A DNA stretch of 24,913 bases, taken from a virus. Its lineage: Duplodnaviria > Heunggongvirae > Uroviricota > Caudoviricetes. The notes beneath the pieces were generated by a model. It ran no database searches. It saw nothing but the letters and a program-made list of their open reading frames with translations, and had not been told where the DNA came from. Location: IMG/VR virus record IMGVR_UViG_2537562172_000005; one strand, given 5' to 3'. This document shows, one piece after another, positions 1,422-3,824 of the stretch (position 1 is the first letter of the stretch; the number at the start of each line of letters is the position of its first letter). Both the position numbers and the translations under genes were made by a program.

Positions 1422-3824
1422 TTAAAAATCAGCCTGACTCGGGATCAGTTTTTGCCAGATTGCTGAAACTTGTTTTGCCTGGTGACGTGCATCATCAAGT
1501 GCATTGTGGGGTACACCTTCGAATGGAATAGCCATTCTGACATCAAAGCCAATGGAATTTCCCAGTTCAACAATTGTGCGCACATCGCGATCGTTGTAGT
1601 AACGCCACGGGCAGGGGATCCCCTGCCGTTCATATGAACGGCGTAAAATCACATTGTCGAAGTTGGCTCCATTTCCCCAGATCTGGACAAAGCTTTCGCC
1701 GGAGTTTTCGTTGATAAATTCCCGTAATTGCAGTAGAGCGTCATCTAACGGGATTTCATCGGTAAAAATGGCAGATTGCGCTTCGCGTGATCGCTTCGCC
1801 CACCACTTTATTGTTTTCCGGTCGATGATTCCGCCAGATGTTTCCAGATCGATAGCTTTGCTGAATTCCGGCCCCATCTCTCCGGTTGCCGGGTCAAAGA
1901 ATTTACCGCCAATAGAGTTGATTGGTGCATCAGGATTTGTTCCCATCGTTTCAAGGTCGACCGACAGGTGAGTCCACACTCTGCTGGTGGATGTGATAAC
2001 GTGATGACCGTTCACCGCAATTAAGGGATCTGCCGTCTCGCCAGTTTCATTATCGCTGGCGTGGTCCTGAGCGCTGCCAGCATTCTCCTTGTGTGGATGT
2101 TCAGCGCCTTCCATTTCCTCCGGATCATTTTCCTGAACTTCAACCTGATTCTCTTCATCGAATGTTTCCTGGTATGTTGCGTTGCCCATCACCGCACCAC
2201 AATCAGGGCAGTTGCCGCCGCCGGTCTGACCGCAGGCGGTGCAGACTTTTTCCGCTTTCTGGTCGTTCTGTTCCGTTTCTTGCTGGTTCTGATTCACTGA
2301 ATCGCGGGTTTCAATCCCCTTCACCCATTTCGGATCATTCGGGTCGCTAATCCCTGCAACAAATTCACCACGTGATACAGCAAGCAACTTATCGGCGTCA
2401 GGCTGGCTGATATTGGCTGCCTGCATAATTTTGTTTACTTCGTCAGCGGTAACTTTTACCGGCTCTGGTTGTGCGATCGTGTCAGATGCACCAGTATTTT
2501 GTTGTGAACCTGAGTACGTGCCGTTTTTACGTGCGAAGTATTCCTCTTTTGTGATTTCCGTAGCTCCCAGGGCCAGTGCTTTTTCCAGACCAGAAAGTTT
2601 GTTTGCGCGACCGTATTTTTCGCCGTCCTTATCGGTGAAAAGGAAGTAGAACGGTCCCTCACGCTCTACAGATGGTTCGTCTTCCACTTCGCATTCGGTT
2701 TTTTCGTTGTCCGGCATTGCCGTTTCCACTGCATCAGTTTCTGGTACTGGCGACGGGAGAGTGCCAGCTGTGCCCTGATTTGTTCCTTCGTCATCTTCAA
2801 ACACGCCCTTGGTAGTCAGGTATTCAGTGATGTATTTGTTCAGTGCTACGGGATCTTTGTGAATGTCGATCGGACGCTCACGGACAAGGCCAAAAATAGT
2901 CTGACGGTCGTAGCGAACGGCATCGGGTTGTTTGCGCATTGATGCGGAAATGCGCTTCCAGTCTTCGCGATCTTTGTCGATAACTTCATTTTTTGCCCAG
3001 CGATGGATGCTGCCGTCAATGTTTCCGGCATTAATATCGCCAGGCCACAGAGCGTAGGCCAGTTCTTCATCCAGCGTTTTCCATGTCTGCTTGTATTCGC
3101 GACGAATGGCTGCAGTGGTGGGGTTGATTTTTCCTGCTGAGTTTTCAGTGTTCTGCCGGTTAACTTTGGCGCGGGCGAGATCAACAACAGAAGTATATGC
3201 ACCACCTTCTTTGCGCTCCTTTTCCTGGCGTTTTTTACGGTCGAGAAAATATGCCTGAACGTCGGGCCATTTGGCGGTTGGTTTTAAATCACGTCTGGCA
3301 TCGTTGATGTATTCAATCTGACGTTCCGGATACATGGCGTTAATTTCTTTAGTCCGGATAATTGCCTCTGCGAGGTGTCCGTCAAAGGTCATCATGTCGT
3401 CATCGCCAAGAAGACCGCTTGCGTTGATGACCATATCCACGGTGACGTTTTCATGTGCGCCAAACTTAACGAGAACAGCGGCCTGTTTGTCGTCGGATAA
3501 CTGATTAAAGTTAACAATTTCTGTATTCGGCTCTGGTTCGACCGGGACAAAGGAAGACGATCCCTCATCCCAGCGGTTTTCCTGCATATACTCGGTATCC
3601 CAGGAGTCGATAGCAGGGCGGGGCATGCCGGGTTTATCCTCGCAGACAAGAAATTTATAAGCGCAGTCCTGAGCAGCCGGATATTGCTCCAGGAATTGCC
3701 AGGTAAATTTGGCACGGGCGCGGCGTTCGTCACCGGCTTCAATGGCAGTGGCTACAGCAACTGCCCCTTCTTCCTTTATTGCCTGTTCGTCCGGAATGGC
3801 GGCGCAAATAAAGACTTTACTCAT
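1422..3824 (-). CDS. Large exonuclease-family protein with C-terminal DEDDh 3'-5' exonuclease domain
   Basis: 800-aa ORF; C-terminal DLETMG...HNALDDARH motifs typical of DnaQ-like exonucleases; central Cys4 zinc ribbon (CTACGQ...CPDCG); acidic linkers; occupies the exo/recE position of lambdoid early-left operons. Confidence 0.7.
   Translation of the reverse strand: [800 protein letters not shown]

Follow-up and report, generated by a model that had tools for sequence, protein, structure and literature searches.

Why does a large early-left phage protein that resembles RecE end in a 3'-5' exonuclease of a different fold, and what would it do in a phage where no recognised annealase accompanies it? 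We address this question for the 800-aa protein encoded on the minus strand at positions 1422..3824 of the IMG/VR record IMGVR_UViG_2537562172_000005, a stretch of 24,913 nucleotides from a member of the Caudoviricetes, which is hereafter called the window (the whole stretch of DNA that was analysed). The protein joins the non-catalytic body of RecE to a predicted DEDDh exonuclease domain. The reading that we favour, with a probability of about 0.6, is that of a modular early-left protein acting as a lytic-phase exonuclease on DNA 3' ends, accessory to host RecBCD/RecA recombination or to DNA turnover.

The C-terminal exonuclease domain

The window corresponds to the left two-thirds of a lambdoid Stx2e prophage located beside ompW in porcine E. 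coli, and over 6.6 kb it is 100% identical to E. coli UMNF18 and ETEC4073, where the gene is annotated. More than 100 contigs carry proteins identical to the 800-aa product. The gene and its C-terminal domain are as follows.

1422..3824, minus strand: the 800-aa gene, a complete open reading frame (ORF) with an ATG start and no internal stops; product 100% identical to RefSeq WP_000048590.1, 'exonuclease'
1455..1973, minus strand: DEDDh 3'-5' exonuclease domain, residues 618-790, PF16473, with catalytic residues D623, E625, D723, H773 and D778

Residues 618-790 match the entire profile of Pfam family PF16473 (Rv2179c-like 3'-5' exoribonuclease; profile positions 1-177 of 177, E 1.3e-61), with a score of 207.9 bits for a cutoff of 27. 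In a pairwise alignment, D623, E625, D723, H773, and D778 correspond to D7, E9, D119, H186, and D191 of T4 DexA, and this catalytic pentad is invariant or at least 90% conserved among 14 homologues. DexA, which is itself a member of PF16473, is the sole sequence match in the PDB, and no Rv2179c chain was retrieved in the PDB sequence search at E <= 0.01.

The structural predictions point in the same direction. An AlphaFold2 model of residues 455-800 has predicted local distance difference test (pLDDT) scores of 86-95 across residues 614-797. Its best PDB match in Foldseek is again DexA (8KEL, E 3.5e-10), followed by RNase T, a DnaQ domain, REXO2, Cap18, and oligoribonuclease (Orn). No lambda-Exo or RecE chain is found among the 50 PDB structural matches listed, and no Pfam match to the PDDEXK/DUF3799 domain (PF12684) is found in the 800-aa protein.

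A preliminary description of this locus had proposed an early protein ending in a DnaQ-like 3'-5' exonuclease of DEDDh type, rather than in a lambda-Exo/RecE-type fold. The intact ORF, the full-length PF16473 match, the pentad aligned to DexA, and the AlphaFold2 and Foldseek results all agree with this proposal, and the motifs on which it was built are correctly placed (DLETMG at residues 623-628, HNALDDARH at 773-781, and a RecE-like string at 482-508). Judged from sequence and model, residues ~614-797 form a DEDDh-type 3'-5' exonuclease domain that belongs to the DexA/Rv2179c family and keeps all five catalytic residues. The name of PF16473 cannot decide between an RNA and a DNA substrate, because DexA belongs to this family too.

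A RecE-like body without the RecE nuclease

The remainder of the protein comprises four domains, which AlphaFold2 predicts with confidence from an alignment of 33 sequences, separated by disordered linkers, and a region near the exonuclease domain that closely resembles RecE.

3531..3824, minus strand: domain D1, residues 1-98, small alpha/beta, not RecE-like
3207..3527, minus strand: domain D2, residues 100-206, helical, pLDDT 93-98; homology to RecE in the profile comparison starts at about residue 166
2805..3089, minus strand: domain D3, residues 246-340, helical, homologous to RecE residues ~262-353 (hhalign 99.7%), pLDDT 90-97
2520..2660, minus strand: domain D4, residues 389-435, beta-hairpin/helix module (GPFYF...GRANK), pLDDT about 95
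2019..2396, minus strand: recE-identity block, residues 477-602, with zinc ribbon and acidic linker; its 3' end marks the mosaic junction
2196-2243, minus strand: CxxC-x8-CxxC zinc ribbon, C528, C531, C540 and C543

Three types of comparison connect this region to RecE. With BLASTP, residues 280-603 align to residues 294-592 of K-12 RecE (39% identity, E 9e-58), including near-identity over roughly residues 470-603 (~130 residues), which contain the zinc ribbon and the acidic stretch. With hhalign, a profile of 33 homologues aligns residues ~166-460 to RecE 177-474 at 99.7% probability (E 4.7e-26). At the DNA level, blastn aligns 375 nt of the gene (nt 1431-1805) to recE nt 1365-1772 with 79% identity. 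The NCBIfam equivalog for RecE, NF007259, matches residues 449-603 with model positions 440-603 of 877, reaching 253 bits for a cutoff of 1269.

The DNA similarity to recE ends at nt 1805 of the gene, in codon 602, which is the boundary of the RecE nuclease domain (residues 564-866 of RecE, according to the review PMC11611040). Past RecE residue 592, BLASTP aligned only chance-level fragments (E 0.31 or worse). At the other end of the protein, the first ~165 residues match neither RecE nor PF06630, the RecE N-terminal domain, for which no Pfam match is found anywhere in the 800-aa protein. D4 also has no counterpart in K-12 RecE and is aligned to a gap by both BLASTP and hhalign.

The earlier suggestion that the middle segment is reminiscent of the non-catalytic part of RecE, through a domain swap, is supported by these alignments. 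Its string at residues 482-508 lies inside the block that is nearly identical to K-12 RecE; RecE-like DNA stops at codon 602 and is followed by the DEDDh domain; and all domain combinations exist, as described below. The alignments thus identify the 800-aa protein as the RecE non-catalytic body without the RecE nuclease.

Selection was estimated from the ratio of nonsynonymous to synonymous substitution rates (dN/dS), computed against the orthologue of phage Tritos (dS about 0.3-1.0). The ratio is 0.10 for D1, 0.32 for D2, 0.15 for D3, 0.05 for D4, and 0.19 for the DEDDh domain. One linker and the acidic stretch reach 0.6-0.9 (0.89 for the acidic part). The folded parts of the scaffold and the nuclease domain are under purifying selection. 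The acidic stretch evolves almost neutrally. Its striking likeness to RecE looks like recent shared ancestry and not like strong constraint. Residues 455-613, covering the zinc ribbon and the acidic stretch, have low pLDDT and are predicted to be flexible. A structural search with the scaffold gave no informative relative.

A scaffold found with several C-termini

Using residues 1-610 as the query, we scanned 1.84 billion cluster representatives with HMMER. Only 234 clusters were recovered, and the scaffold family is therefore narrow. The C-termini were counted among the 59 representatives of at least 450 aa: a Rad52-like motif domain is present in 17, a PDDEXK domain in 12, the QQLT-motif in 11, a DEDDh domain in 8, and RecT in 1, with 10 unassigned.

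N-termini and C-termini occur in all combinations. P0133 has a RecE N-terminus (PF06630, the first 290 residues being 100% identical to K-12 RecE) followed by a DEDDh domain, and P0131, P0180, and P0202 have an N-terminus of the type found in the 800-aa protein followed by a RecE-type PDDEXK domain. We also observe a natural fusion of RecE to RecT, P0211 (703 aa), in which RecE residues 1-~548 are retained, the RecE nuclease domain is absent, and residues 520-703 are 97% identical to K-12 RecT.

The most frequent C-terminus, found in 17 of the 59 (for example P0136 and P0143), is a domain of ~180 aa with a KKSLTDAxKKALSxLGF motif, without a nuclease domain. Several features suggest that this motif-bearing domain is probably a Rad52-like annealase. 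Pfam Rad52_Rad22 gives sub-threshold matches at the signature helix in 7/10 motif-domain members (best E 0.003). Stand-alone phage homologues with 38-44% identity are annotated as "RAD52-like annealing protein" or "DNA repair protein". In Pectobacterium phage ZF40, the gene after the fused form belongs to the Gp157 family, and so does the one after the stand-alone form in phage PseuP_222. Against this assignment, a stand-alone homologue annotated 'RAD52-like' has no match to the Pfam Rad52 family, and hhalign to human RAD52, with an approximate query, aligns both signature motifs in order but only at E 0.029 and a probability of 1.7%. The motif domain has no PDB profile match. Proteins with the motif domain are annotated 'exonuclease' despite having no nuclease domain, among them gp07 of Pectobacterium phage ZF40 (L008, positions 2645-4810).

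The 11 proteins with the QQLT-motif end in a short conserved C-terminal sequence (QQLTIAALQGLCANPA...DDLPGMA) without a recognisable domain. Members of this QQLTIAALQGLCANPA-type class include P0127, P0149, P0216, P0241, P0252, P0261, and P0262. They may be the 'RecE-2' proteins that PMC12315714 describes as having no nuclease domain.

We regard as possible, but doubtful, the more general idea that the RecE-type scaffold is a delivery platform which lambdoid phages fuse interchangeably to DNA-end effectors, namely a PD-(D/E)XK nuclease (5'-3'), a DEDDh nuclease (3'-5'), a Rad52-like annealase, or RecT. If this were true, the scaffold would bind one common target, for example DNA ends, SSB, the replisome, or RecBCD, and this would give a testable account of the N-terminal two-thirds of RecE and of the preference of full-length RecE for linear-linear recombination.

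Operon, neighbours, and control

The genes surrounding the 800-aa gene are listed below, followed by the order of the whole window on the plus strand.

1..1131, minus strand: integrase (ORF and RefSeq annotation); the prophage end adjoins ompW
1109..1357, minus strand: excisionase (xis), directly downstream of the exonuclease gene; Pfam Exc E 4.4e-7, RefSeq annotation
3916..4110, minus strand: DUF1482 gene (YdfD-like small lysis protein), upstream in the same operon; Pfam E 4.2e-19, RefSeq annotation
4101..4298, minus strand: dicB, cell-division inhibitor and functional analogue of Kil; Pfam DicB E 1.6e-31, RefSeq annotation
4487..4537, minus strand: divergent DicF-like small RNA, upstream of dicB; Rfam RF00039, 32.5 bits, E 4.5e-5, model 1-52 of 52
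6087..6494, minus strand: dicA, CI-like repressor (RefSeq annotation)
Window order, start: integrase, excisionase, 800-aa gene, DUF1482 (ydfD-like) gene, dicB, small early genes, dicA, dicC
Window order, middle: replication genes, SIR2-family gene, IS481-family element, hokD, DUF968/HNH protein, RusA, Q
Window order, end: DNA methylase, tRNAs, stx2e, lysis genes, terminase

The DicF-like RNA scores below the Rfam gathering score of 48 and does not appear in a default Rfam scan; a terminator-like hairpin is seen at 4519-4492.

No Pfam match to annealase, Gam, SSB, or N families was found in the ORFs tested between 3916 and 16507, two early-left ORFs being without assignment. The preliminary description had reported that no annealase, gam, kil, or N gene is apparent in this operon. 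This holds for the annealase, Gam, and N over the interval given, and fails for kil, as dicB and the DicF-like RNA are functional analogues of Kil. The immunity region is of the DicA/DicC type, and a lambda-style N gene is therefore not expected.

Phages Tritos and mEp460 share with this prophage the order repressor, ydfABC, (dicF), dicB, ydfD, exonuclease, xis, int, and so do three other E. coli prophages, which come from unrelated strains and have different repressors and attachment sites. No annealase is found in the displayed region of these five loci; the lack of a recombinase partner near the exonuclease gene, claimed at the outset, is thus confirmed here and conserved in its relatives. 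Tritos and mEp460, which retain the gene at this position, are plaque-forming phages.

In the Qin prophage of K-12, this position is taken by the pseudogene ydfE (L004, positions 6079-6999), which corresponds to the N-terminal 257 residues of the exonuclease family, with 69% identity, and is truncated by IS2. The dicBF transcript of Qin includes ydfD and ydfE, and its promoter is repressed by DicA (PMC10448788). In the window, neither a promoter-like site nor a terminator is found directly upstream of the 800-aa gene, and the counts of promoter sites do not exceed those of shuffled controls. Taken together with the Qin transcript, this suggests by analogy that the exonuclease gene is a lytic-phase gene.

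The spacer between the 800-aa gene and xis is 64 nt long; in Rac this place is occupied by recT, ralR, and rcbA. Positions 1376-1412 in the spacer form a GC-rich imperfect inverted repeat (GGTCGTCGCC...GGCGGCGACC), the loop and stem of which contain a Chi site. A possible role for this repeat is that of a terminator or a processing element in front of xis-int.

Elsewhere in the window, two opposed ORFs overlap in the early-left region, at 5063-5623 on the minus strand (186 aa) and 4537-5106 on the plus strand (189 aa), with no Pfam or PADLOC match above threshold. The 186-aa ORF has no credible PDB match, and its homologues in phage records are all hypothetical. The early-right region encodes a SIR2-family protein at 9076-10107 on the plus strand (Pfam SIR2_2; PADLOC Aga_SIR2 and PDC-S21, E ~1e-5 to 1e-6), a candidate defence gene. 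Further along, a sok Rfam match (10310-10477, plus strand, 109 bits) and hokD (~11581-11736, plus strand) lie ~1.1 kb apart with an IS481-family transposase gene (10436-11509, minus strand) between them; this may be a hok/sok locus split by the IS481-family insertion.

Chi sites and RecBCD

The window contains 10 Chi octamers (GCTGGTGG), compared to 0.62 expected, and none of 100 shuffled sequences reached 10. Six are on the plus strand and four on the minus strand, a weak bias. Their positions are as follows.

1394-1401, 1983-1990, 12819-12826, 13225-13232 and 13277-13284: Chi sites
15010-15017, 16141-16148, 16338-16345, 18511-18518 and 23677-23684: Chi sites, continued

Zheng, Casjens, Davidson, Amundsen, and Smith (Genome Res 2025, PMC12315714) describe DnaQ-like 3'-5' nucleases in the early-left operons of lambdoid phages. 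In their account, lambdoid phages without Rec modules and RecBCD inhibitors are Chi-rich and dependent on the host RecBCD, and the DnaQ-type nuclease genes that lie outside the canonical Rec module are usually very near int. Over the 24.9 kb covered, the Chi-rich window, with no annealase or Gam family recognised and two ORFs unassigned, may belong to the class with no Rec module and high Chi.

Prevalence and annotation

We searched 5426 complete E. coli genomes for this family. Full-length homologues (at least 80% coverage) are present in 3265 genomes, and DNA for the exonuclease domain is present in 3854, at 7697 places and up to 7 per genome. The RecE nuclease together with recT is present in 1728. 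The DEDDh-ended version is thus about twice as frequent as genuine RecE-RecT in E. coli by genome, and about four times by copy. These numbers correct any impression of rarity: the 800-aa protein is a very common E. coli prophage protein, and it had been annotated before.

RefSeq names it "exonuclease", "3'-5' exonuclease" or "3'-5' exoribonuclease", many phage records label it exodeoxyribonuclease VIII, and the Pfam families precomputed for it are PF27430, PF27432, and PF16473. The exodeoxyribonuclease VIII label is misleading, as it implies a 5'-3' recombination nuclease and gives no basis for inferring a RecET-like system. Literature searches on Rv2179c, PF16473, and ydfE brought up nothing on the 800-aa protein. 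The protein is already catalogued, and its class is noted in PMC12315714; the present analysis adds that C-termini of the RecE nuclease type, of a probable Rad52-like type, and of RecT are found on this scaffold too.

Proposed function and alternatives

By analogy with ydfE in Qin, the gene would share a transcript with dicB and the ydfD-like gene, starting at the early-left promoter that DicA represses, and the protein would be made upon derepression or induction, not in the stable lysogen. It is predicted to remove nucleotides from DNA 3' ends in a Mg2+-dependent manner. The DNA preference is proposed because DexA is the nearest relative and because the other assignable C-terminal partners of the scaffold are DNA-end proteins. 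The phage, being Chi-rich and without a recognised anti-RecBCD gene, would use the RecBCD and RecA of its host for recombination-dependent replication, with the exonuclease as an accessory that might trim 3' flaps or non-homologous ends, degrade host or competitor DNA, or restrain unwanted recombination. The shared scaffold would probably steer whichever effector it carries to a common target. The exonuclease would not be the resection half of a single-strand-annealing pair: a 3'-5' exonuclease cannot make the 3' tails on which an annealase acts, in agreement with the absence of such a partner.

Several observations would rather be expected of an RNA exonuclease like Rv2179c. During induction, such an enzyme might trim the dicF/dicB transcript or control the xis-int message by 3'-end decay. 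The Pfam family is named and described as 3'-5' exoribonuclease, and NCBI gives this name to many copies; RNase T, REXO2, and oligoribonuclease are among the structural neighbours; and the gene lies between a small-RNA operon and xis-int, with the GC-rich hairpin in the 64-nt spacer. Nevertheless, in sequence as in structure, the nearest solved relative is a DNA exonuclease, DexA, which belongs to PF16473, and the PDB search returned no Rv2179c chain at E <= 0.01. The assignable alternative C-termini of the scaffold are DNA-recombination effectors. Moreover, RNase T and its relatives also cut DNA, and these fold neighbours do not discriminate between substrates. We consider an RNA substrate unlikely.

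A second possibility, which we find rather improbable, accepts DNA as the substrate and makes the protein a nuclease for anti-phage defence or for superinfection exclusion. Kang et al. (NAR 2025, PMC12153337) solved the structure of DexA and report that EcD ('HREX'), an E. coli homologue, digests T4 DNA containing 5-hydroxymethylcytosine (5hmC) and protects against T4. By that report, a stand-alone member of the same family blocks T4 in E. coli, and the gene described here lies in a prophage. DicB of the same operon is described in PMC6832061 as protecting against some phages, DNA for the DEDDh domain is present at up to 7 sites of a single genome, and defence genes are frequent in prophages. 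The residues for 5hmC recognition, however, are not kept (DexA W152 is replaced by Y743 and D169 falls in an absent insertion, in the pairwise alignment only), and no PADLOC-DB v2 family matches the protein (0 families, E <= 0.01). The gene is the distal member of a repressor-controlled lytic operon, not part of an immunity-region or moron transcript, and plaque-forming phages keep it at the same position. EcD itself starts at the catalytic motif (MIDTET, from the cloning primer), with no scaffold before it. Scans of viral contigs for exact EcD patterns, derived from the cloning primers, gave none or one chance match (L007).

It is very improbable that the protein is a decayed RecE remnant, deprived of its nuclease and of recT and persisting by prophage hitch-hiking. 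Many carrier prophages are indeed defective, truncated copies exist (ydfE cut by IS2, and IS1-interrupted copies, H99), and the acidic linker is near neutral (dN/dS 0.89). However, the reading frame of 800 codons is unbroken, the catalytic pentad is conserved, folded domains have dN/dS of 0.05-0.19 (D2 being at 0.32), and full-length copies are found in 3265/5426 genomes and in viable phages. The pseudogene reading was rejected on the folded-domain dN/dS and the conserved catalytic residues.

Lastly, a true exodeoxyribonuclease VIII, that is, a RecE-type 5'-3' dsDNA exonuclease for single-strand annealing, is suggested by the database labels ('exodeoxyribonuclease VIII', 'exonuclease VIII, ds DNA exonuclease') and by the partial NF007259 match, and was rejected as next to impossible because this match (253 vs 1269 bits, model 440-603 of 877 only) is far below the cutoff, Pfam finds no PDDEXK/DUF3799, the fold is DEDDh, there is no RecT, and the alignment past RecE 592 is at chance level.

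Comparison with known systems

M. tuberculosis Rv2179c is a small single-domain actinobacterial protein. It resembles the C-terminal domain as the founding member of PF16473, and differs in that Pfam describes it as an exoribonuclease.

T4 DexA (PDB 8KEL/8KEN) is the closest solved relative of this domain: both are in PF16473, the five catalytic residues align, and DexA is the best PDB match by sequence and by structure. By pairwise alignment with MAFFT the two share 32% identity, and by Foldseek about 19-21%. DexA is a stand-alone protein of 227 aa with extra loops. Its W152 aligns to Y743, and its D169 falls in an insertion which has no counterpart in the 800-aa protein, with the limit that these positions come from a pairwise alignment in which the loop is uncertain. 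EcD/HREX (PMC12153337) belongs to the same exonuclease family and is found in E. coli; it stands alone, starting at the catalytic motif, and the residues which that paper names for 5hmC recognition are not conserved in the 800-aa protein.

The DnaQ-type nucleases of PMC12315714 share with the 800-aa gene a location near int and outside a Rec module, and the window is Chi-rich, as in that class. The difference is the fusion to a RecE-type scaffold, which the main text of that paper does not describe. The ydfE pseudogene of Qin occupies the same operon position, after dicB and ydfD, but IS2 has cut it short, and it lacks both the exonuclease domain and the remaining scaffold. The 'RecE-2' and ZF40 gp07 class shares the N-terminal and middle scaffold with the 800-aa protein, whereas the nuclease domain is absent and a probable Rad52-like domain or the QQLTIAALQGLCANPA-type motif is found instead.

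RecE of Rac (exonuclease VIII) is also a large protein, encoded in the same early-left slot between the division-inhibitor genes and xis-int, and its residues 177-592 are homologous to residues ~166-603 of the 800-aa protein, zinc ribbon and acidic linker included. The two proteins differ in their nucleases, which are of the PD-(D/E)XK type (5'-3') in RecE and of the DEDDh type (predicted 3'-5') in the 800-aa protein. They also differ in their first ~165 residues, which form another module in the 800-aa protein, in D4, which has no counterpart in RecE, and in the gene that follows, as recT follows recE and no RecT is found behind the 800-aa gene. According to the review PMC11611040, the N-terminal part of RecE has no known function. 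One scaffold carrying nucleases of opposite polarity, and probably annealases, would offer a way to probe it.

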